From: Nitrososphaerota archaeon
GTDB taxonomy: Archaea > Thermoproteota > Nitrososphaeria_A > Caldarchaeales > Caldarchaeaceae
Assembly (NCBI GenBank): GCA_041641305.1
Contig: JBEPYN010000002.1
Location: 288,001 to 352,000 of the forward strand
DNA length: 64,000 nt
Reading direction: 5' to 3'
Position numbers and translations under genes: made by a program. The notes beneath the pieces were generated by a model. That model was not told where the DNA came from, did not search any database, and saw nothing but the letters and a program-made list of their open reading frames with translations. Shown here in pieces: positions 13,905 through 35,907 of the stretch; the stretch's first letter is position 1; each line of letters starts with the position of its first letter.

Positions 13905-16306
13905 CTTTGGTTTTTGATGAGGTGCCAGAGGGTTGATGGTTTGATGTGGCTGCTTACTATCTTGACCCCAAGCGCGTCCTCGATCGCGGCGGCTATCGCG
14001 GCGAGCGGTGATCCGCCGCCTTCTCCGACACCTCTCGTACCAAGAGGACTCGTGAGACTGGGTATGCCGAGGCTCGCTATTTTCTCTATCATGGGGACAT
14101 CGGCGGCTGTGGGTGCGAGGTAGTCGGCCAGGCTGGAGTTGAGGAGCTGTCCATCCTCGGAGTATTCGAAGTTTTCGTAAAGGGCCGCGGCGATGGCGTT
14201 GAACGCGGAGCCTATCACCTGTCCTCTGACTATCAGTGGATTAATCTCTCGGCCGCAGTCATCCACTATCGCGTAATCTAGAATCTTGACAGCCCCCGTC
14301 TCTGTATCTACTTCGACAACAGCGGCGTGGACTTGGTAAGAATAAGTGAGGGTCAGGTTGCCTCTTTTTTCTTCGGGGTCTGGGTAGGTGAAATCCGGTG
14401 CATAAACCGCGTGAGCGAACAGCCCTGGCTCTATGCCTTTGGGCAGTAGCCGTAGGTTTGACCACGCAACGTTCGCTATTTGCCAGATGGGTATTTTCTT
14501 GTCGCCGGAGATTGTAGTTACTTCACCGTTCTTGATGGTGAGGTTTTTCACATCGGTCTCCAGGAGCGCAGCCGCTATCTGGAGAACTTTGGCTCTAAGA
14601 GCTTGTGCCGCCTTGACGACAGCCGTTGCACCGAGGGCGGCAAACCGGCTCGCATACGTTCCTGAGTGTCCTGAGAACGGGTTGCTGAAGGAGTCAAACC
14701 CTATCAAAACCGTTACCATGTCTGGTGTAACTCCCAGCTCGTCGGCAACCAGCTGCCTAACCACGGTCTCGTGACCCTGTCCCTGAGGACTGCTGCTGAC
14801 AGCTGCTATGATGTTGCCCATGTTGTCGATTTTAACCCATGCCGCTTCACTGCCTCCAGACATGGGGAAGTTGGGATTAATTATCCTCACTTGGCCGAAG
14901 TTGTTTGAACCGGAGTCAAGGGTTACTCCTATTCCGATGCCGATACGTTTTCCACCGTCTGATTGCTGTTCTTTAATTTTACGCCATTTATCATAGTTAA
15001 TCAGCTCTAAGGCTTTGATGGTGGCCAGTTGGTAGTCTCCGCCGTCGTAGACACAGCCGCTCGGGGTCGTGTACGGCATCTCCTCTCTACGTATGTAGTT
15101 ACGCATCCTTATCTCGACGGGGCTTATGCCAAGTTTTTTGGCCGCAATATCCATGATTCTCTCTATCATCCACATGTGCTGCAGTCGGGAATAGCCTCTG
15201 ACAGGGCCTGTTGGACACTTGTTGGTGGTCACCGAGTAAAAATCTACGTAAAGGTCCTTGAATCTATAGACGTTGCACGAGACCTGTGCCCATATCACCG
15301 CTCCCAGAGGTTCATAGCGTGGATAAGCACCTATGTCATCAATTGCTTTAACCTTCAAGCCGAGCAGGGTACCGTCCCGCTTAAATCCCGCTTTTACGTG
15401 GAAGGTGCGTTCGTTGCAATGCGATGACGAGGCTGACAAATTTTCTCTCCTCGTCTCCACCCATTTGACTGGGCGTCGGACAAGCATCGACACGGCGCCC
15501 AGCAAAGTCATGTAGACATAGTTGTTGATCTTGGTTCCGAAACCTCCTCCGATATCTCTGCTTATCATCCTAATTCTGCTCAAGGGTTTGCCTAAGGCCA
15601 CGCTTATCATGAATCCTACAACCATGGGCATCTGGTTGGGTGCGTAAATTGTTAAGATATCATCTTGTGCATTATAGTCTGCGACTACGACGTTGTTCTC
15701 AAGAGGTATAGCGCTGTATCTGTTGAAACGTAGTGTCTCCTCGATGATTACCTCAGCTTTAGCAAGAGCTTTCTCGATGTCACCATAGTTATAGACACCA
15801 TGCCACACCACGTTGCTTCCCAACTCTTCATGAACAACCGGTGCATCGGACTCCAGTGCTTTTTCACCATCCACCACCGCTTGCAGTGGCTGGTACTCCA
15901 CCTCTATTTGCTCAAGCGCATCATATGCTGTGTACATGTCTTCTGCGACGACGACAGCCACTGGCTCGCCCATGTAGCGAACCTTGTCGACTGCCATGCA
16001 GTAATCCTTTATCCTATCTGCTGGAGGTGGAGCGACTTGTGGAAAAGGATTGGTTATAGCCGCTATGTCTTTGCCTGTGACGACTTTAATCACGCCCGGT
16101 ATCTTCTCAGCCTTTGACACATCGATGTTCTTAATATAAGCGTGGGCGAACGGGCTTCTGAGTATAGCCGCGTAAACCATGTCCTTTAAACGAAGGTCAT
16201 CGGTGAACTGGCCTTTGCCGGTTATCAACCGCCTGTCCTCATATCTTTTGAGAGGCCTACCGACCCAACCCACTTCCTCCACTTTTTCCTCGAGATAGAG
16301 AGACAC
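13901..16306 (-). CDS. Xanthine dehydrogenase family molybdopterin-binding large subunit (CoxL-like, not a form I CODH)
   Basis: RYEDRRLITGKG, GGGFG, QGQGHET, GTYASR, RGVGEGG. The active-site loop is PTGPVRGYSR rather than AYxCSFR. Confidence 0.92.
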   Translation of the reverse strand: MSLYLEEKVEEVGWVGRPLKRYEDRRLITGKGQFTDDLRLKDMVYAAILRSPFAHAYIKNIDVSKAEKIPGVIKVVTGKDIAAITNPFPQVAPPPADRIKDYCMAVDKVRYMGEPVAVVVAEDMYTAYDALEQIEVEYQPLQAVVDGEKALESDAPVVHEELGSNVVWHGVYNYGDIEKALAKAEVIIEETLRFNRYSAIPLENNVVVADYNAQDDILTIYAPNQMPMVVGFMISVALGKPLSRIRMISRDIGGGFGTKINNYVYMTLLGAVSMLVRRPVKWVETRRENLSASSSHCNERTFHVKAGFKRDGTLLGLKVKAIDDIGAYPRYEPLGAVIWAQVSCNVYRFKDLYVDFYSVTTNKCPTGPVRGYSRLQHMWMIERIMDIAAKKLGISPVEIRMRNYIRREEMPYTTPSGCVYDGGDYQLATIKALELINYDKWRKIKEQQSDGGKRIGIGIGVTLDSGSNNFGQVRIINPNFPMSGGSEAAWVKIDNMGNIIAAVSSSPQGQGHETVVRQLVADELGVTPDMVTVLIGFDSFSNPFSGHSGTYASRFAALGATAVVKAAQALRAKVLQIAAALLETDVKNLTIKNGEVTTISGDKKIPIWQIANVAWSNLRLLPKGIEPGLFAHAVYAPDFTYPDPEEKRGNLTLTYSYQVHAAVVEVDTETGAVKILDYAIVDDCGREINPLIVRGQVIGSAFNAIAAALYENFEYSEDGQLLNSSLADYLAPTAADVPMIEKIASLGIPSLTSPLGTRGVGEGGGSPLAAIAAAIEDALGVKIVSSHIKPSTLWHLIKNQS

Positions 16307-25693: not shown

Positions 25694-25807
25694 GCGGGGG
25701 TTGCCAAGCCTGGTCAAATTACCCAGCCACAGCTGGGTAAAGCCAGCGGCGCAGGGCTTAGGACCCTGTCCCGAAGGGGTTCGTGGGTTCAAATCCCACC
25801 CCCCGCA
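25694..25807 (+). tRNA. tRNA-Leu(TAG) with approx. 29-nt D-loop intron (about 25718-25746)
   Basis: Acceptor GCGGGGG/CCCCCGC-A; anticodon arm CAGGG-CTTAGGA-CCCTG; long variable arm; GTGGG-TTCAAAT-CCCAC. The intron hairpin TTACCCAGC-caca-GCTGGGTAA sits in a relaxed bulge-helix-bulge. Confidence 0.93.
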
Positions 25808-27785: not shown

Positions 27786-28190
27786 GCCAATCAATCTCAT
27801 CCCCATGGCAACGCTACGTTCATGCCAGCAGGACTAGATTCAGCCTAACTATGCTGAGTTTAAGGACTCAGCTCTCCCGCAATGGCTGGCTCAAGTAACT
27901 AGGCAGTTGAACCATATGCTAGAATAGGCATGAAGAGACGGCTCCCCCGAGCACACGGTCGCCGGCTGAGGTGGGCCATGAATACATCCTTATCAAACGT
28001 CCTATAATAAGGACCATGAGATCTTTTTCCTTGAAGATATCAGCAATCAAAACATCTTTCTTCTATGCACTGCATAAACCCAAGGCACGGACATGCAGCA
28101 AGAGAAGAGGACATAGAGTCAAAGGGAATTAGGCGACAAGGCAGTTAGGGAGTGAACATTTATAATTTGGTTTCTAAAGTTGAAGGACAG

Positions 28191-28835
28191 ATGGTTGTTA
28201 AGATGTTACTTTTTTTGCTTGAAAACTGTTTAATCGATGTCAACGTAGATTATTCTGAAGTATGGTCCCATGTTCCTGAACTGGCAGGAAATGATAAGAC
28301 AAATGTTTTCGCACAATTAAGGTTGCTTAGACGTCGGTTGTCAAAAAAGAGATATTGTCAACTAGTGGAGAGAGTTTCTGAAGTGGTCGCCAATGTTGAA
28401 AAGGTGGCCGCGACACGTTCCAGATTGAATTTCGACCCATTCAGAACATTGTCAGAAGTTAGGAAGAGAGGCGTCATGGTTTACGCATTCAGCATGTTTG
28501 GGGAAGACACTGTCAGGGAACTTCTTGAGAAACATGGATTGACAGGAATTTTTGAGGGGTTTGTTTCAAGAGTGCGTGTTGACCAGCCTATCGGCTTTTT
28601 ATTTCCGTTGAGGTTGGCAAAACGACAGATCAAGGATAAACAGGGCGACATTCTTTTTGTTTGCGGCGACTCAACCACCATACGTTCCGTGAAGGAAGCT
28701 AATGTCCCTGGCATCAAGATAGCTGCGTTGCCTTTAAAACCCGCTGAGGTGAGAAACATAATCATGGCCAGGCCTGATTACTTCCTAACCAATCTTTCTG
28801 AGATAGTTGACATTTTTGACTTAGGGCTTGCCTAA
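28191..28835 (+). CDS. HAD-fold protein lacking catalytic Asp residues
   Basis: Motif I reads LLFLLENCLID instead of hhFDxDGTL; ILFVCGDS and C-terminal ARPDYFLTNLSEI are HAD-like. TTTATAA lies about 25 nt upstream of ATG 28191. Confidence 0.6.
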   Translation: MVVKMLLFLLENCLIDVNVDYSEVWSHVPELAGNDKTNVFAQLRLLRRRLSKKRYCQLVERVSEVVANVEKVAATRSRLNFDPFRTLSEVRKRGVMVYAFSMFGEDTVRELLEKHGLTGIFEGFVSRVRVDQPIGFLFPLRLAKRQIKDKQGDILFVCGDSTTIRSVKEANVPGIKIAALPLKPAEVRNIIMARPDYFLTNLSEIVDIFDLGLA

Positions 28836-29308
28836 TAAAATTTTCTCCCTATTAGCCCTATTGCGACGCCATAGACAACATACGCTATGCCGTAAACTGT
28901 TACAATCTTAGCTGCTTCAAGAACAGGCATGTTTATCAAACTTAAGCCATATCCTGGGATTTCTGTATTTGTCAAATATATTGCAAAAACTATTAGCTGA
29001 ACACCGGCTATTCCAAGTCCTTTCGTTACGCTATATGTTTGGAAGATAAATGCGTAGAGAACGCCCCACAATGCCCCTATTATGAAATACGTGGTTAGGC
29101 CTATGAGCCCCAACTCGTAAGATGGGCCTGCGATTCCAAGTGTCTCAGGTATCATGGTAAACAATCTTGGGTTTTCAAACCCGAGTCCAGCAGCTAAGAT
29201 CATCACGACACTCATAGAGATTGATGCAACTACTCCGCCGACAATTCCCAGTTCGATCTTTTTCGAAAACGGTATTGATTTTTCAGCTTTCGCTATTTCT
29301 AAAGTCAT
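28832..29308 (-). CDS. Four-TM membrane protein, co-transcribed with cytochrome b
   Basis: Four hydrophobic segments; ATGA overlap with the cytochrome b stop. Confidence 0.75.
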   Translation of the reverse strand: MTLEIAKAEKSIPFSKKIELGIVGGVVASISMSVVMILAAGLGFENPRLFTMIPETLGIAGPSYELGLIGLTTYFIIGALWGVLYAFIFQTYSVTKGLGIAGVQLIVFAIYLTNTEIPGYGLSLINMPVLEAAKIVTVYGIAYVVYGVAIGLIGRKFY

Positions 29309-30135
29309 TTTTTCACCTCAAGCTTCTTCGACTCCTTTTTGAGGTTCCATCTTGTTGGATCAAAATGTTCAAGGTAAAAATCTTTCCTTATCCATCCCGT
29401 GACCATTGCCTTCAAAATAGGCCAGTTCACAGGAAGTACAGCGAAATAAACATGGCCAATCACCATACCTATCGTTAATGCTGCAAAAAGGTCGTGGAGA
29501 ACTCGGAATAGATGCTCAATTTCATAAGGTATTTGAGGTATTAGCCCATATGGATTCCAAAAATAGAGACCGGTGATGCCTAAAACTACAAGAGCTATTG
29601 TAAGACCCCAATGGAAAGTCTTCATGAATACATCATATTTCGGGATTGGTTTGTATTCTCTTACAAGTCCGAGAAAGTGTTTTGTTCTTACCCAACCGTC
29701 ACTAAGATCTTTTAAACCTATCCATATGTTCCACCATCCCTTTTTCACACCCACATCCCAGACAACATGTATAACTAGTAATCCAAGTAGGGACCATGCC
29801 ATGTTAACATGCCAGAAAATCTTAGCCTGCGTTCCCTCTATTCCCAAGGGCGCTAGAAAAGGGTCAAAGACGTTTGGAAAATATAATGCTAGCCCTGTTA
29901 GAGTCATTATACCAAGCGTTACAAAATTAAGCCAGTGAAAAAGTCTTTGAACAGGATCAAAAGCACTTATTTTTTCAGGCGTTACCTCCGGGACCATTGT
30001 TGGTGTCGGTCGGGGTTGTCTGAAAGCTCGTCTGAACCAATGGACTACGTATACTGCTACAAAGGCTAGGATTATGGCAGTGAATATTTCTGGGCTGAGG
30101 CGGACAAGTTGTGTAGTGAAATCGCCTTCAGCCAT
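29305..30135 (-). CDS. Di-heme cytochrome b (FdnI/HyaC-like) with extra N-terminal TM helix
   Basis: QRLFHWL, FWHVNMAW, PKYD, RVLHDLFA, IGHVYFA and LKAMVTGW match FdnI-type heme-ligand spacing. Confidence 0.87.
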   Translation of the reverse strand: MAEGDFTTQLVRLSPEIFTAIILAFVAVYVVHWFRRAFRQPRPTPTMVPEVTPEKISAFDPVQRLFHWLNFVTLGIMTLTGLALYFPNVFDPFLAPLGIEGTQAKIFWHVNMAWSLLGLLVIHVVWDVGVKKGWWNIWIGLKDLSDGWVRTKHFLGLVREYKPIPKYDVFMKTFHWGLTIALVVLGITGLYFWNPYGLIPQIPYEIEHLFRVLHDLFAALTIGMVIGHVYFAVLPVNWPILKAMVTGWIRKDFYLEHFDPTRWNLKKESKKLEVKK

Positions 30136-30237
30136 GCCTCGGAAATTTATTTTGATAGATATAAGCATTGTCAATTAACACGAATATGGATATTACAAAA
30201 ATTTTTATATATATTGTAAGTTAGTGTAAGTTTACAC
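30136..30237. promoter_or_regulatory. Divergent AT-rich promoter region between cytochrome b and Mo-hydroxylase operon
   Basis: TTTTTATATATA box about 25 nt upstream of ATG 30238; inverted repeats TTACAA...TTGTAA and GTGTAA-gt-TTACAC. Confidence 0.55.
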
Positions 30238-30876
30238 ATGATAAAACGGGGAGGAGGTCTCTCGAGGCGGGATTTTATCAAACTCTCCGTCACATCATCT
30301 TCACTGATTTCGGTGGCTGCGATAACTAGGCCGAACACATCTGTAGCCGCTCAGGAACCAGCGCAGCTCAAACAAACAGGTATTGAAGCTGCTTTTGCAT
30401 CACGCACAATTAGGATGCGTGTAAACGGGAAGGAATACTCTGCAATAGTTAATCCGTATGACACCCTTGTCAACGTCTTGAGAGAACAGCTTGGACTAAT
30501 AGCTACTAAACGTCCATGCAATAGAGGGGAATGTGGAGGCTGCACAGTCTTAGTAAACGGTGTCCCGATCCTTTCATGTACTTACCTAGCGGTGAGGGCA
30601 GATGGCAAGGAAATACTAACCGCTGAGGGGAGGGATTATGATCCAGTGTTGAAAACTTTACAGGATGCTTGGGTGGAAAAGGATGCAAGTCAATGTGGTT
30701 ATTGTCAACCGGGTCAGCTTATGTCAGCTACTGCCCTGTTGAAAAAGAACCCTAACCCGACAATATCAGAAATAAAGATGGCTATGAGCGGAAACCTATG
30801 CAGATGCGGAACGTATATGAATATTATTGAAGCAATACAGCTTGCCTCAGCTCGTTTGAGAGGTGGGAGCGCATGA
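30238..30876 (+). CDS. Tat-signal 2x[2Fe-2S] subunit of Mo-hydroxylase (PaoA/YagT-like)
   Basis: SRRDFIK twin-arginine motif, CNRGECGGC...SC, QCGYCQPG, GNLCRC. Confidence 0.92.
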   Translation: MIKRGGGLSRRDFIKLSVTSSSLISVAAITRPNTSVAAQEPAQLKQTGIEAAFASRTIRMRVNGKEYSAIVNPYDTLVNVLREQLGLIATKRPCNRGECGGCTVLVNGVPILSCTYLAVRADGKEILTAEGRDYDPVLKTLQDAWVEKDASQCGYCQPGQLMSATALLKKNPNPTISEIKMAMSGNLCRCGTYMNIIEAIQLASARLRGGSA

Positions 30877-33227
30877 GCGAGCCGCTGCCGGTTGTTGGGA
30901 TAAAAAAGGAACGCTACGCACTAGTTGGTAATCCGTCTATTCTCCGTGTTGATACGATGGGAAAAATAACAGGAAAATCTGTTTACACGTATGATATCAA
31001 CCCCTCCCACGTAGGAGAGTCAAGGTTTGTTTACATGGGATATGTGAGGAGCCCACATCCGCACGCTATAATTAAAAACATTGATACAAGCTTGGCTGAA
31101 GCCAGGGGATATGCCGTTGTAACTGCGCGTGATCTACCTAGATTTTCACTTGTAGGTGCAAGGCCGCATACCCCGCTACCTATTGACAGAGTTAGATACA
31201 TCGGTGAACCGGTGGCAGCGGTGGGCGCCCTCTCTCCCAATGAGGTGGAGGAAGCTATTGATCTTGTAAAGGTAGAGTATGAGCCGCTTCCTTTTGTTAT
31301 GGACCAGGAAGAGGCATTGAAGCCTGACGCTCCGAGGATATGGCCTGATGGAAACGTAGCTGGAGGTGGATTTAACCCAGAAACGGGGCCAGTTCCTCCA
31401 ACTATAACGATCAAATATGGCGATATAGAGGCCGGATTCAGAGAAGCTGATGAAATCGTCGAGGCTAAGATAGAGACACAGATAGAGCAACATTACGAGA
31501 TGGAGCCTCGAGCGATAGTTGCCTACTGGAGAGGTGGAAAACTTTACTTCAGGTATAGCGGCCAGTTTGCCCACAGCGCTCAGGCAGCTGTTGCAAACTA
31601 TTTCAGGATGCCTCTAACAGACGTTATCTTCTCCACAAGCCTAGGAGGAGAGTCGGGACATGTACTGGGCATGGCTCTGGGAAACAAGTCGGCACCCATA
31701 GAGGACTTGATTGTTGTAGCAACAATGGCGAGAACAACTGGCGCCGCAGTTAAGTATGGTCCGACAAGATTCGATAATGCCTTAGCCCCTCACCAAAGGT
31801 TCCCAATAAGAGGCTATATCAAGTTTGGAGGAAAAAGGGATGGAACATTCACAGCAATGCAGGCGCGACTAGTCATCAACGTAGGTGCATACGGCGGATC
31901 ACAGGGATCTGATGCGATTTCCGACTTCTATCATGCTTACACCGTTCCAAACGTCTCGCTGGAGGCAATATCTGCAAACACGAACGCCTTCGGATACTCA
32001 GGACCTATGAGAGATGTAGGTGAATCACAGGGGCACTTCATTCTAGAAGTGGGCGTAGACATGCTCGCTGAAAAACTTGGGATAGACCCTGTAGAGTTTA
32101 GGCTAAAGAACATGAGGACCAAGGAGAATGCAATAGATCCGGTCACCGGAAACAGGTATACCGGCTTCGGCCAGCCAGAGGCTTTCCTTAGAGCTATGGA
32201 GAAATTCCGATGGAAAGAGAGATGGAAAGGCTGGGGGGCCCCTTCATCAGTCAATGGGACAAAGAGACGTGGCGTAGGCGTATCGCTCCTAAACGCGGCA
32301 AAAGGAGCAGCATCTCCACCCATAACAGGCCAGATCGAGGTTGCACCTGATGGAACGGTGACGTTTTACACAGGGTTAACTGACCATGGTGCCGGAGGAA
32401 GAACTTCATTCGCAATCATGACTGCTGAGGCCCTTGGGCTCACATCACTTGAAAACGTAAAAGTGGTTTCATCAGACACGTCAGTCACCACAAACTCCGG
32501 AGTTACTGCTGGAAGCCGCTCAACACGTGTAGCGGGACTCGCGATAGTTAAGGCAGTCGAAGACCTTAAGAGGCAATGGTTTCCAATTATCGCTGAGAAG
32601 CTGGGCGTAAAACCAGAAGACCTTGAATTCGGCGACAACAGGGTCTACGTCAAAAACGACCCAGCCAAAGGAATGTCATTTAAAGAGGCGGCCGCACTGC
32701 TCAAAGCCCCTATAAAAGGATACGGCACATTCACACTACCTCAAGGAATAGTATCAAGAGTAGGCGGCGTCAAATTCGTAGAGGTAGAGGTGGATGTTGT
32801 AAGCGGCGAGGTACACGTAACAGAGTATGTCTCCGGGATGGACATAGGACGGGTTATTTTCTGGAAAGGTGCAGAAAGCCAAGTTAGAGGAGGTTTCGTC
32901 GGCATGGGCATGGGTGAAACATTCTTCCAAGAAATAATCCTTGATCCAGTTACAGGCGGCTATCTCAACCCCAACCTCCATGACTTCCGTATCCCAACCA
33001 TCATGGAGGCTCCCGACAAGATTGACTACCATTGGGAGGAATACCATGACCCAATATCAGGGTTCGGGGAGAAAGGAATTGGAGAAAATGTGTTAACAGG
33101 TGTGAGTCCCGTTATTGCAAACGCCCTCAGTAATGCGCTTGGCGGCTATAGGTTCACAAAACTGCCTATTAATAAGAAAGATATCATGGAAGCAATAGCT
33201 TGGATGCGGAGGAGGGGGATGATATGA
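30873..33227 (+). CDS. Mo-hydroxylase molybdopterin-binding large subunit (PaoC-like)
   Basis: VRSPHPHA, MEPR, TAGSR, KGIGE (catalytic Glu). The active-site loop is GPMRDVGESQG. Confidence 0.92.
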   Translation: MSEPLPVVGIKKERYALVGNPSILRVDTMGKITGKSVYTYDINPSHVGESRFVYMGYVRSPHPHAIIKNIDTSLAEARGYAVVTARDLPRFSLVGARPHTPLPIDRVRYIGEPVAAVGALSPNEVEEAIDLVKVEYEPLPFVMDQEEALKPDAPRIWPDGNVAGGGFNPETGPVPPTITIKYGDIEAGFREADEIVEAKIETQIEQHYEMEPRAIVAYWRGGKLYFRYSGQFAHSAQAAVANYFRMPLTDVIFSTSLGGESGHVLGMALGNKSAPIEDLIVVATMARTTGAAVKYGPTRFDNALAPHQRFPIRGYIKFGGKRDGTFTAMQARLVINVGAYGGSQGSDAISDFYHAYTVPNVSLEAISANTNAFGYSGPMRDVGESQGHFILEVGVDMLAEKLGIDPVEFRLKNMRTKENAIDPVTGNRYTGFGQPEAFLRAMEKFRWKERWKGWGAPSSVNGTKRRGVGVSLLNAAKGAASPPITGQIEVAPDGTVTFYTGLTDHGAGGRTSFAIMTAEALGLTSLENVKVVSSDTSVTTNSGVTAGSRSTRVAGLAIVKAVEDLKRQWFPIIAEKLGVKPEDLEFGDNRVYVKNDPAKGMSFKEAAALLKAPIKGYGTFTLPQGIVSRVGGVKFVEVEVDVVSGEVHVTEYVSGMDIGRVIFWKGAESQVRGGFVGMGMGETFFQEIILDPVTGGYLNPNLHDFRIPTIMEAPDKIDYHWEEYHDPISGFGEKGIGENVLTGVSPVIANALSNALGGYRFTKLPINKKDIMEAIAWMRRRGMI

Positions 33228-34228
33228 GAAGTGAAGTAAAAAGAATGGGCCTTCTCCAGCCTTCGACACTACAAGAAGCAGTTAGCTTACTTGACCGTTT
33301 TGGTAACGAGGCGAAAATTGTAGCAGGCGGAACAGACCTACTATATCTGGTGAAGAACGGCGTAAAATCGCATATACCGCAGCTCATGATTGACATCTCT
33401 GGACTTGGACTCTCTTACATAAACTTCGATGGAGAAGGGCTAAGGATAGGTGCAACAACGCATCTTAGCGAGGTTGCGGAGAATGATATCGTTAGGGAAC
33501 GTTTCACAGTCTTGGCCGAGGCAGCGGAGAGAGCGGCATCTCCACAGCTTAGGAACATGGCTACAATAGGTGGCGACCTTCTCCAAGAGGTCTGGTGCTG
33601 GTATCTGCGCTACAACTATGACTGCTGGCGAAACGGTGGAACAATCTGCTATGGAGCCATAGGCGACAACCGTTTTTACCACAGTATTTTCGGCGGCAGA
33701 CTATGCTACGCAGTTCACCCCGGAGATATTGCGCCAGCACTGTTTGCTCTAAACGCGCGCGTTGTGATAGCGGGACCAAGCGGAGAGAAAACTTTAAGGA
33801 TGGATGAGTTTATGCCCGGTATAGTTTTGGTCGACGGAAGAATAAAGGAAAACGTGTTAAGACGCAACGAAATTTTAAAGGAGGTTATTGTACCCACACC
33901 CCCAGCAGGCACCAAGTCGGCTTACTACAAAATTGCGGAGAGAGGGTCAATTGATTTTGCCTTGGCAAGTGTAGCAGTAGTAGCTAACATGAATGGTTCT
34001 ACAGTCAATAACATAAGCATCGTATTAGGCGGTGTTGACGTGAAGCCCAGACGCGCCAAGGACGCCGAAACATTTCTTCAAGGAAAAACGCTCAACGAAG
34101 AAAACATAACGAGAGCTGCAGACCTTGCCGTGCACGATGCACAACCACTTGCCATCGGCACCGGAAACGCATTCAGAGTAGAGATTGCACGGGGCGCAGT
34201 GACAAAAGCGCTGACCAAACTCATTTAA
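33224..34228 (+). CDS. Mo-hydroxylase FAD subunit with [4Fe-4S] insert (PaoB/HcrB-like)
   Basis: AGGTDL, ASPQLRNMATIGG, four Cys in CWYLR...DC...IC...LCYAVHPGD. Confidence 0.9.
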   Translation: MRSEVKRMGLLQPSTLQEAVSLLDRFGNEAKIVAGGTDLLYLVKNGVKSHIPQLMIDISGLGLSYINFDGEGLRIGATTHLSEVAENDIVRERFTVLAEAAERAASPQLRNMATIGGDLLQEVWCWYLRYNYDCWRNGGTICYGAIGDNRFYHSIFGGRLCYAVHPGDIAPALFALNARVVIAGPSGEKTLRMDEFMPGIVLVDGRIKENVLRRNEILKEVIVPTPPAGTKSAYYKIAERGSIDFALASVAVVANMNGSTVNNISIVLGGVDVKPRRAKDAETFLQGKTLNEENITRAADLAVHDAQPLAIGTGNAFRVEIARGAVTKALTKLI

Positions 34229-34238
34229 CTTACAGAGT

Positions 34239-34454
34239 ATGTCTGAAGAACTCTCAATAGACGACATATACAAAAAACATAGAGGATTCTGGGTCGCCTT
34301 ACTGGTTACAGCAAGAGACGAAAACGGCCAACCTGTGAGAGGAAAAGTGGTCTGCACAGACATTGATCGATACAGACTTAGACAGGAAACCAGGGGCTAC
34401 AAAGAATTATGTATATTTTATGCAGGTGATCCAGAATATCCACTATTAGTTTGA
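34239..34454 (+). CDS. Small protein resembling the DUF5678-like partners of retropepsin-like genes
   Basis: IDDIYKKHRGFWVALLVT..DENGQPVRGKVV; translationally coupled (TTGA) to the next gene. Confidence 0.6.
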   Translation: MSEELSIDDIYKKHRGFWVALLVTARDENGQPVRGKVVCTDIDRYRLRQETRGYKELCIFYAGDPEYPLLV

Positions 34455-34867
34455 AACTCAAGTCGAGTTCGAAACTTTTTCCAAGTTTATTTGTCTCCTT
34501 AAAAGGACGAGGGGAGTTGACTAGAGAGTATCTCGCTTTACTTTCGACCACGACCGAATACTGCGTCATGCCGCGGGTGGATGCATACATGCTTGGTTAT
34601 CCCGAAGCCATATCAGACACCATGACAGAAATGATAACTAGACCGAACTATGTTACAACACTCGCATCCGTCAACAGCTTCGTTGACGCACCTCTGCTAT
34701 CAATGAAAGAAGTAACGATAGGACAACTTACCGTCAAAAACCTCGAATTCATAGCATTTGACCTGCCCCAAGAAACTAGAATAGACGCAATTCTAGGGAG
34801 AAATTTCCTCGAAAGGGTAAAAGCAAAAATAGACTACCACAATAGGGTTATCGAACTTGAGGGCTAA
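34451..34867 (+). CDS. Retropepsin-like (clan AA) protein, catalytic DTG replaced by STT
   Basis: YLALLSTTTEYCVM...AYMLGY...VTIG...IDAILGRNFL...IDY. Confidence 0.7.
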   Translation: MKLKSSSKLFPSLFVSLKGRGELTREYLALLSTTTEYCVMPRVDAYMLGYPEAISDTMTEMITRPNYVTTLASVNSFVDAPLLSMKEVTIGQLTVKNLEFIAFDLPQETRIDAILGRNFLERVKAKIDYHNRVIELEG

Positions 34868-35294
34868 GCTCATCCACGATTATCCAGCCATATGCATTTG
34901 TCGAGTCAAGGGGGTAAACAACTATGTCAGAGAGATACCTACACTGATCAACTTAAGTTACTGCAATAGCATTATGAACAGGACCACGGCAGCAGAACTT
35001 GGATACGCAGATGTAACATCACGCATTCAAGAACTTGAAGAATTATACCATGATAGCAAAGTTAAATATTTTTTAACATTAAAAGGCATAGAACGAGCTT
35101 ACATAATCAAGCTAAAACAGGTCACAATGGGTAAAATAATACGTCGCAACTTTCCCGTGGCTGTATTAGAAGAAGAGCTCAACCCCCACCTACCTGTAGA
35201 CATGATCCTCGGATTAGATTTTTTCAAAAACTGTAACGTTGTAATCGATTCAGGGAAAAAGAAAATCAAGGTGGGCTTTTCAAGAGAAAGGTAA
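34857..35294 (+). CDS. Second retropepsin-like protein, catalytic DTG replaced by NLS
   Basis: IPTLINLSYCNSIM...AAELGY...VTMG...VDMILGLDFF...VID. Confidence 0.7.
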   Translation: MRAKLIHDYPAICICRVKGVNNYVREIPTLINLSYCNSIMNRTTAAELGYADVTSRIQELEELYHDSKVKYFLTLKGIERAYIIKLKQVTMGKIIRRNFPVAVLEEELNPHLPVDMILGLDFFKNCNVVIDSGKKKIKVGFSRER

Positions 35295-35907
35295 GGCGAT
35301 TGGAAGAAAGCTGAAAATCGCTAGCCATCTCGAGACCAACAGTGGTATGCAAAAGTTTAGAGATAGGTAAACATCTCACTCTCCCCCACAACACTTTATT
35401 CTCGCCCACAAACAAGGGTGTCGAATGTACATCTGTTTCCCTGTTTTCACTCGTCAATATGTAAAGATGATTGGGTGAAATCTCCTCAGCAAATTGTTCA
35501 AGGGTTTCTTTTTGCATGTCTACATCGGAAAAGGAAACATAAATATACCTATGAGGTATCTTCATTACTGCAAATATGTTTAATGTTCCAAGCTTCTTGT
35601 CAACTCTGTTAAGTACGCTGGAAGCCCCGCCTTCACCGGCGTATTCTCTCCTCAAGTATTCTTCAACAAACTCAATCAATAACTCCAAATCCATAGTCAC
35701 ATGAATTTCATCACCTGTCTTTGAAATCTGTAGCCGTCCTTTCAATTTTTCTAATACATCTCTAACCAAGTCGTCTTGGTAACTATCCGATGAAGAGCCG
35801 AAATGAATTTTTGGCATACTTCCTATTTCAGTAACCGCCTGTAACAAGAAAGGGAAAAGCCCCAGAAGGACTTTTCTTCTCATCTCGTAGGTGCTGGGGT
35901 CTGACAC
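35266..35907 (-). CDS. Hypothetical protein (possible degenerate restriction-endonuclease-like fold)
   Basis: 213-aa ORF with a TTAAT-type box upstream; no recognisable catalytic motif. Confidence 0.6.
   Translation of the reverse strand: MSDPSTYEMRRKVLLGLFPFLLQAVTEIGSMPKIHFGSSSDSYQDDLVRDVLEKLKGRLQISKTGDEIHVTMDLELLIEFVEEYLRREYAGEGGASSVLNRVDKKLGTLNIFAVMKIPHRYIYVSFSDVDMQKETLEQFAEEISPNHLYILTSENRETDVHSTPLFVGENKVLWGRVRCLPISKLLHTTVGLEMASDFQLSSNRLTFLLKSPP

Follow-up and report, generated by a model that had tools for sequence, protein, structure and literature searches.

In a 64,000-nucleotide (nt) stretch of the genome of a Nitrososphaerota archaeon of the order Caldarchaeales (GenBank assembly GCA_041641305.1, contig JBEPYN010000002.1, positions 288,001 to 352,000; hereafter the window, to whose coordinates all positions without another label refer), two gene groups facing away from each other occupy 28832-35294 and encode a molybdenum enzyme of the xanthine oxidase (XO) family and a membrane cytochrome. 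The plus-strand group opens with the small subunit S (30238-30876; 212 amino acids (aa)), in which a twin-arginine translocation (Tat) signal is followed by two [2Fe-2S] domains. It continues with the large molybdenum-cofactor subunit L (30873-33227; 784 aa, without a signal peptide), the flavin adenine dinucleotide (FAD) subunit M (33224-34228; 334 aa), which has a four-Cys insert of the [4Fe-4S] type, and three coupled small genes (34239-35294) for a 71-aa protein and two retropepsin-like proteins of 138 and 145 aa. The minus-strand group consists of an FdnI-type two-heme cytochrome b of family PF01292 (29305-30135; 276 aa from a conserved ATG) and a DUF6789/YqhR-like 4-helix membrane protein without His or Cys (28832-29308; 158 aa).

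The underlying open reading frames (ORFs) span 28832-29308 (-), 29305-30174 (-), 30238-30876 (+), 30873-33227 (+) and 33200-34228 (+). The cytochrome b frame is open up to a TTG at 30174, and its start was placed at the ATG at 30135 by alignment of 4 related loci; M begins at the ATG at 33224, which overlaps the stop of L as ATGA (33224-33227). Overlapping stops and starts at S/L, at L/M and among the small genes indicate that the plus-strand genes form a six-gene operon. The initial annotation had described a three-gene S-L-M operon; these genes lie where it had placed them, and the operon extends to twice that number of genes. On the minus strand, the 4-helix gene overlaps the stop of cytochrome b by 4 nt. 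The divergent intergenic region (30136-30237) measures 102 bp, in line with the shared promoter of approximately 100 bp that had been proposed, and contains two facing A/T-rich TATA-like boxes. TTATATA-like blocks of this spacer are kept across the 4 related loci, and it presumably acts as a divergent promoter region.

Pfam matches above cut-off were obtained for all three enzyme subunits, namely Fer2/Fer2_2 for S, Ald_Xan_dh_C, MoCoBD_1 and MoCoBD_2 for L, and FAD_binding_5 and CO_deh_flav_C for M. The N-terminus of S (MIKRGGGLSRRDFIKLSV..SVAAQEP) carries the twin-arginine motif SRRDFIK at residues 9-15 with likely signal cleavage after VAA, and the PaoA model aligns to S from residue 12. The arginine pair is retained in all eight S orthologues with a readable N-terminus, which bears out the canonical Tat signal claimed for this subunit. 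An N-terminal extension occurs in only this S among the six S-like genes of the genome, L and M have no signal, and the genome, which is related to Ca. Caldarchaeum, encodes TatC. The S-L-M enzyme is thus predicted to be the only exported XO-family enzyme among the genome's 15 paralogues. In two soil loci (L021 7664-7760 and L031 3631-3770), the Tat motif (LSRRTFIKGSV) stands upstream of the first ATG/GTG/TTG in the small-subunit frame, which therefore has either an unusual start codon or a miscalled gene.

M carries four Cys (C125, C134, C142 and C161 in ATG-based numbering) that fall in exactly the same alignment columns as the Cys of PaoB (5G5G_B) and of the Methylobacillus aldehyde oxidase (5Y6Q_B) and that are invariant across 9 orthologues; in the alignment, HcrB also carries a four-Cys insert. 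By its alignment to PaoB the insert of M is a predicted [4Fe-4S] site, and the initial annotation was correct in pointing to it, with cluster binding as a prediction.

L belongs to a clade marked by the motifs LGMALGNK, GPMRDVGESQG and KGIGEN, all of which are invariant within it. LGMALGNK stands at the position of the canonical GGxFGxK; a similar LGGESGHV lies just before it, and the exact register there is uncertain. MRDVGESQG was aligned by HMMER, free of gaps, to FRGYGAPQS of D. gigas MOP, FRGFGVPQA of nicotinate dehydrogenase, YRGVGFTAG of quinoline oxidoreductase and FRGFGFPQG of mouse AOX3, and an insertion in the GPMRDVGESQG loop was rejected on the basis of this gap-free alignment. 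R380 in this motif occupies the column of the Arg in the FRG(F/Y)G of MOP, NdhL and AOX3, and E738 in KGIGEN aligns to the catalytic glutamate (KGVGE) of PaoC and of the nicotinate dehydrogenase NdhM; both residues are invariant in the clade. At the position of the xanthine-binding Glu (bovine XDH E802), L has Ser (GNKS). GPMRDVGESQG is therefore an ordinary arginine loop with substitutions and with its Arg kept. The loop and the absence of the usual GGGFG had previously been read as signs of an uncharacterised substrate class. The motifs are indeed present and the clade is distinct and uncharacterised, but the argument for new chemistry was overstated, as the Arg and the catalytic Glu are kept.

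No curated NCBIfam model came near its cut-off. The best solved-structure match of L is HcrA, PaoC being distant (153 bits), and among the genome's 15 paralogues L is the one that scores lowest against the MoCoBD_1 profile. Homologues of L fall into 98 clusters at E<=1e-120, of which the source-named ones bear archaeal names and generic annotation. The enzyme is a catalytically plausible member of the XO family, to judge from these conserved positions, in a clade without a known substrate. With the queries used here, 15 large-subunit paralogues were detectable in the 1.66-Mb genome, against 6 small-subunit and 5 FAD-subunit genes; a second XO-family large subunit lies in the window at about 15095-15835 (-).

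The cytochrome b matched Ni_hydr_CYTB (PF01292) with 81 bits against a cut-off of 30 (E 1e-22). NCBIfam formate dehydrogenase gamma models matched it below cut-off (FdnI 42 vs 341), and its score against the HyaC equivalog was likewise far under the cut-off. For an AlphaFold2 model of the protein (mean pLDDT 77), by far the best solved match was FdnI (1KQF_C; E 7e-6, TM-score 0.73 over 212 columns), followed by HyaC (4GD3_A), with CybB (5OC0) at rank 32 (E 0.99). The family match and the fold together uphold the earlier description of an FdnI/HyaC-like cytochrome b. Six His are invariant in 22 cytochrome b sequences, and three of these (H80, H227 and H241) fall exactly on H18, H155 and H169 of FdnI. 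The stretch PKYDVFMK aligns to GKYNAGQK of FdnI (residues 107-114), with a KY(N/D)xxxK pattern at 108-114; in the 1KQF structure, this part of FdnI is reported to line the quinone site. The K/R-rich loops are on the predicted cytoplasmic side, as in the FdnI topology, which would put H122 and H227 close to the outer side of the membrane and H80 and H241 close to the inner side.

The 4-helix protein, which had been noted as a coupled four-helix membrane protein, does have four hydrophobic segments in addition to the 4-nt gene overlap. Its DUF6789 match reached 25.5 bits against a cut-off of 27.1, and its atlas neighbours are DUF6789/YqhR. In all archaeal loci, the cytochrome b gene is followed by one for a 4-helix orthologue.

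Linkage between cytochrome and enzyme was surveyed from both sides. About 50 clusters are 42-84% identical to the cytochrome b, and on the cytochrome side the neighbourhoods of seven orthologues (46-84% identical) on long enough contigs were examined. Orthologous S-L-M genes (L 49-92% identical) lie within 8 kb of cytochrome b in six of these (L001, L021, L022, L023, L025 and L026) and 11 kb from it on the same contig in the seventh (L024). On the enzyme side, metagenomes were scanned with the large-subunit alignment; the cytochrome b and 4-helix genes adjoin S in 5/5 loci with L 59-90% identical (L027-L031, from hot-spring and peat samples), and no cytochrome b pair is found in the long loci L032, L034 and L036, in which L is at most 33% identical. 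The initial annotation had held that the pairing would fail if close homologues of the cytochrome sat beside formate dehydrogenase or hydrogenase genes and never beside this operon. The survey gave the opposite picture: all seven cytochrome-side and all five enzyme-side loci have the cytochrome beside S-L-M, and no formate dehydrogenase or hydrogenase genes were called in the loci examined around the seven cytochrome b orthologues.

Three arrangements were encountered, i.e. divergent, as a co-directional operon of cytochrome b, 4-helix, S, L and M (L023 and L030), and split by a maturation island (L022, L025 and L026). Since the arrangement varies in this way, the linkage has survived rearrangement. 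Over ten loci, pairwise identities of cytochrome b and of M are correlated with r=0.95, the pairs not being independent, which is consistent with inheritance as a unit.

The island between cytochrome b and S-L-M is a conserved feature of soil Nitrososphaerota (L022, L024/L042, L025 and L026). Its genes encode XdhC, TusA, a Carb_kinase-like protein, Se_S_carrier with DUF8182, DsrE/DsrH/DsrE, a MocA-like nucleotidyltransferase (NTP_transf_3) and HTH_10, and TatA/TatC are found near it in two loci. Such a gene set points to a relay dedicated to bringing sulfur (or selenium) to the Mo site. In the window's genome, XdhC and TusA are encoded elsewhere, and no Se_S_carrier was found. A second copy of L, 48% identical and with an in-frame TAG, was observed 20 kb from the cytochrome b and S-L-M module in genome G417 (G417:C86:385370-387709).

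A related operon is present in a distant bacterial clade, in the order TetR, S (with VSRRRFIMG), L (825 aa), M with four Cys, cytochrome b and a 138-aa protein, and the M and cytochrome genes overlap. The bacterial cytochrome b is ~28-30% identical to that of the window. Identity to the window's proteins is 36% for S and M and only 27% for L, a pattern consistent with a cytochrome that partners the side at which electrons leave Tat-exported enzymes with a [4Fe-4S] cluster, irrespective of their substrate. Around PF01292 members at 35% (P0056) and 30% (P0082) identity, no XO-family genes were found nearby (loci L038 and L040). The link is therefore clade-specific and not a property of PF01292 as a whole.

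The module is rare in the lineage. It was found in 2/75 genomes of the class and 2/400 sampled genomes of the phylum (G000 and G006), and because the sampled genomes gave only these two carriers, the survey rests on metagenome contigs. The nearest relatives outside the genus are from peat and soil Nitrososphaerota, and together with the rarity this suggests transfer as a unit. The borders of the island could not be defined from same-genus genomes, as their DNA is too diverged and only a tRNA-like 115-nt stretch matches; the border search returned no close orthologues of the flanking KaiC-like and ABC genes.

The nearest known system for the catalytic head is PaoABC (YagTSR, 5G5G/5G5H), which shares the Tat-signal 2Fe-2S subunit, the four-Cys FAD subunit, the Mo subunit, the catalytic Glu and the active-site Arg. 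Against the PaoABC models, however, the scores remain far below cut-off (PaoA 151 bits vs 322; PaoC 236 vs 1180). The E. coli genes are ordered paoA-paoB-paoC-paoD, with a chaperone in the operon, whereas the order here is S-L-M. Examination of the paoABCD neighbourhood confirmed that, as had been stated, there is no cytochrome b in it. At E. coli K-12 302991-303605, yagU, which encodes an inner-membrane DUF1440 protein, is divergent from paoABCD, in the same position as the membrane genes here. YagU was considered as a relative of the 4-helix protein and rejected (BLASTP E 0.75; profile comparison probability 0.4%).

For the membrane part, the counterpart is formate dehydrogenase-N (FdnGHI, 1KQF), an outward-facing, Tat-exported molybdoenzyme on a two-heme anchor, as is proposed for the enzyme here. 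The FdnI fold, the predicted topology, three of the four heme-ligand His and the 108-114 stretch are shared. Unlike FdnGHI, the locus encodes no four-cluster, membrane-helix subunit of the FdnH kind. The cytochrome differs from FdnI by an extra N-terminal helix before its four-helix core (present in the bacterial clade as well), by two more invariant His and by the separate coupled 4-helix protein.

XO-family enzymes are taught as mostly cytoplasmic (PMC7759655). Two ways of linking them to the quinone pool have been described. The acetic-acid-bacterial aldehyde dehydrogenase is an XO-family enzyme at the outer membrane face that passes electrons to quinone through a cytochrome c subunit (PMC9171043), and its small subunit (8GY3) is homologous to S. 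It uses a multi-heme cytochrome c, whereas a transmembrane two-heme cytochrome b and an FAD/[4Fe-4S] subunit are encoded here; the acetic-acid-bacterial enzyme is not known to have an FAD subunit. Mo-Cu CO dehydrogenase (CODH) is coupled to the quinone pool by quinone extraction via the nearby-encoded CoxG (Kropp et al. 2025, PMC12202499). CODH is cytoplasmic and is supplied with extracted quinone by CoxG, in contrast to the exported enzyme here, which is paired with a heme protein. The active-site loop of CoxL has the Cys-containing motif AYxCSFR. The corresponding position in L reads GPMRDVGES, and L scored 157 bits against a cut-off of 991 for CO_dehy_Mo_lg; on these grounds, the window enzyme is not a CO dehydrogenase. 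The HcrABC models also scored below cut-off (alpha 331 vs 995, beta 190 vs 405 and gamma 152 vs 258 bits), and HcrABC is cytoplasmic, whereas the enzyme here has a Tat signal. A cytochrome b partner for an XO-family enzyme was not found described in the literature searched, which is weak evidence, as most subscription journals were not covered; nor did that literature yield a statement of which acceptor periplasmic enzymes of the PaoABC type use physiologically. The locus thus combines known modules in a way for which no description was found in the searched literature.

In our judgement, the locus probably encodes a membrane-bound, outward-facing substrate:quinone oxidoreductase with a formate dehydrogenase-N-like build and a catalytic head resembling PaoABC. 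The data show which domains are present, the Tat motif, the conserved Cys and His, the fold of the cytochrome and the tight two-way genetic linkage; how the parts dock, which way electrons flow, where quinone binds and what kind of substrate is used are inferred. S with its two [2Fe-2S] clusters, L with the molybdenum cofactor and M with FAD and [4Fe-4S] would take up their cofactors and assemble in the cytoplasm. By analogy to PaoABC, the folded trimer would then cross the membrane via Tat on the single signal of S and dock at the outer face on the pair of cytochrome b and 4-helix protein. A substrate, most likely an aldehyde or a heterocycle, would be hydroxylated at Mo with release of two protons outside. 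Electrons would pass from Mo through the two [2Fe-2S] clusters, FAD and [4Fe-4S] to the outer heme and on to the inner heme, and quinone near the cytoplasmic face would be reduced with protons taken from inside, following the redox-loop logic of formate dehydrogenase-N. The initial annotation had proposed a surface aldehyde/N-heterocycle:quinone oxidoreductase forming a redox loop. The parts and their linkage now support that proposal, and contact, electron direction and redox loop keep the status of inference.

Membrane docking draws support from the export itself, as the exported XO-family enzyme is the only one of its kind in the genome and a soluble exported archaeal enzyme would need an anchor. 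Several observations weigh against the proposed complex. Contact between enzyme and cytochrome b is deduced from gene linkage, which gives no direction of electron flow. S, L and M all lack a membrane helix, and the outer loops of cytochrome b are short (~20 residues). H122 lies four residues off the H57 column of FdnI in a weakly aligned stretch, and H136 and H188 are two further invariant His beyond the four putative heme ligands. In three loci, 5-11 kb of DNA with intervening genes separates the two gene groups. Finally, the genome of a Bathyarchaeota cytochrome b homologue (L002; 43% identical) has only 34%-identical XO paralogues; this locus was excluded from the orthologue counts. Its cytochrome gene (L002 8001-8805) reads in two frames, possibly owing to a frameshift. 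A complex prediction for M and cytochrome b gave a score of 0.11 against a mark of 0.32 and speaks neither for nor against binding.

The same complex could also work in reverse, as a terminal reductase in which quinol would deliver electrons through cytochrome b, [4Fe-4S], FAD and 2Fe-2S to Mo in order to reduce an external oxidised compound. The best NCBIfam match of M is the 4-hydroxybenzoyl-CoA reductase beta subunit, and HcrA, as noted, is the best solved match of L; 4-hydroxybenzoyl-CoA reductase is the only member of the family known to work in the reductive direction, and the [4Fe-4S] insert is present in it too. Gene linkage does not tell the two directions apart. However, the HcrA, HcrB and HcrC scores are all far below the curated cut-offs, and PaoB and the Methylobacillus oxidase, which have the same insert, belong to oxidising enzymes. 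Moreover, 4-hydroxybenzoyl-CoA reductase depends on low-potential ferredoxin, and quinol is poorly suited as an electron donor for reductive dehydroxylation. We consider the reverse direction improbable.

The remaining explanations concern whether the enzyme touches the cytochrome at all. The cytochrome b pair might be functionally linked without docking, by taking up superoxide or a small carrier from the exported flavoenzyme, or it might be co-regulated with it and serve another partner. E. coli CybB, a superoxide oxidase of the same Pfam family, is among the fold matches (5OC0), and PaoABC-type enzymes can use O2 in vitro; the separation of the gene groups by several kb in three loci would also be compatible with such an arrangement. 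Yet FdnI is a far closer fold match than CybB (E 7e-6 vs 0.99), three of the four FdnI heme-ligand His are exactly aligned, and the cytochrome is translationally coupled within the enzyme operon in the bacterial clade, in L023 and in L030, so that we give this explanation little credence. The enzyme might instead be tethered by an uncleaved Tat signal, or lie free under the S-layer, and use another acceptor, with the linkage reflecting shared regulation or history only. The rare, patchy occurrence of the module (2/400 sampled genomes of the phylum) leaves room for it, and co-transfer alone could hold genes together for a while. The linkage nevertheless persists down to 44-46% protein identity, through three arrangements and into a bacterial clade at ~30%, and hitch-hiking without selection is therefore unlikely; we regard a tethered or free enzyme with another acceptor as hardly probable.

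The three small genes downstream of M have weak Pfam matches to Asp_protease_2 and gag-asp_proteas. Neither a signal peptide nor a hydrophobic helix was detected in the three small proteins of 34239-35294. Orthologues of these genes lie 3' of M in L001, L021-L023, L025-L027, L029 and L031, and in L042 as three unnamed small genes, and the proteins may be assembly or export helpers. The module is flanked by ORFs 28152-28835 (+) and 35266-35907 (-), of 227 and 213 aa and without a family, which are kept in place only in the closest relatives (L001 and L027-L029). The 213-aa ORF was considered as an HTH_10 regulator and rejected for lack of similarity, although HTH_10 regulators occupy that position in other loci. 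A 114-nt tRNA gene at 25694-25807 (+), presumably intron-bearing, was recognised by Rfam (43.9 bits) and missed by ARAGORN; stretches resembling it occur in 7-10 copies per same-genus genome.

In a wider reading, which in our estimation is evenly balanced, the locus would be one branch of a widespread, undescribed group of respiratory complexes in which each Tat-exported PaoABC-like hydroxylase is mounted on a dedicated FdnI-like two-heme cytochrome b, and quinone is reduced through a redox loop. The archaeal branch would add the 4-helix subunit, the three conserved small cytoplasmic proteins (two of them retropepsin-like) and an L clade whose altered active site would act on a substrate new to the family.

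For annotation, XO-family genes of Caldarchaeales are usually labelled as (multiple) CoxLMS (PMC10547907), and this operon is clearly distinct from that label. If the proposed complex is real, it would represent a fourth membrane wiring of XO-family enzymes, beside CoxG, cytochrome c subunits and soluble acceptors. A dedicated cytochrome b would extend to the XO family the principle of redox building blocks seen in formate dehydrogenase, hydrogenase and thiosulfate reductase, and the complex would allow Caldarchaeales and soil or peat Nitrososphaerota to conserve energy from an organic or heterocyclic substrate outside the cell.

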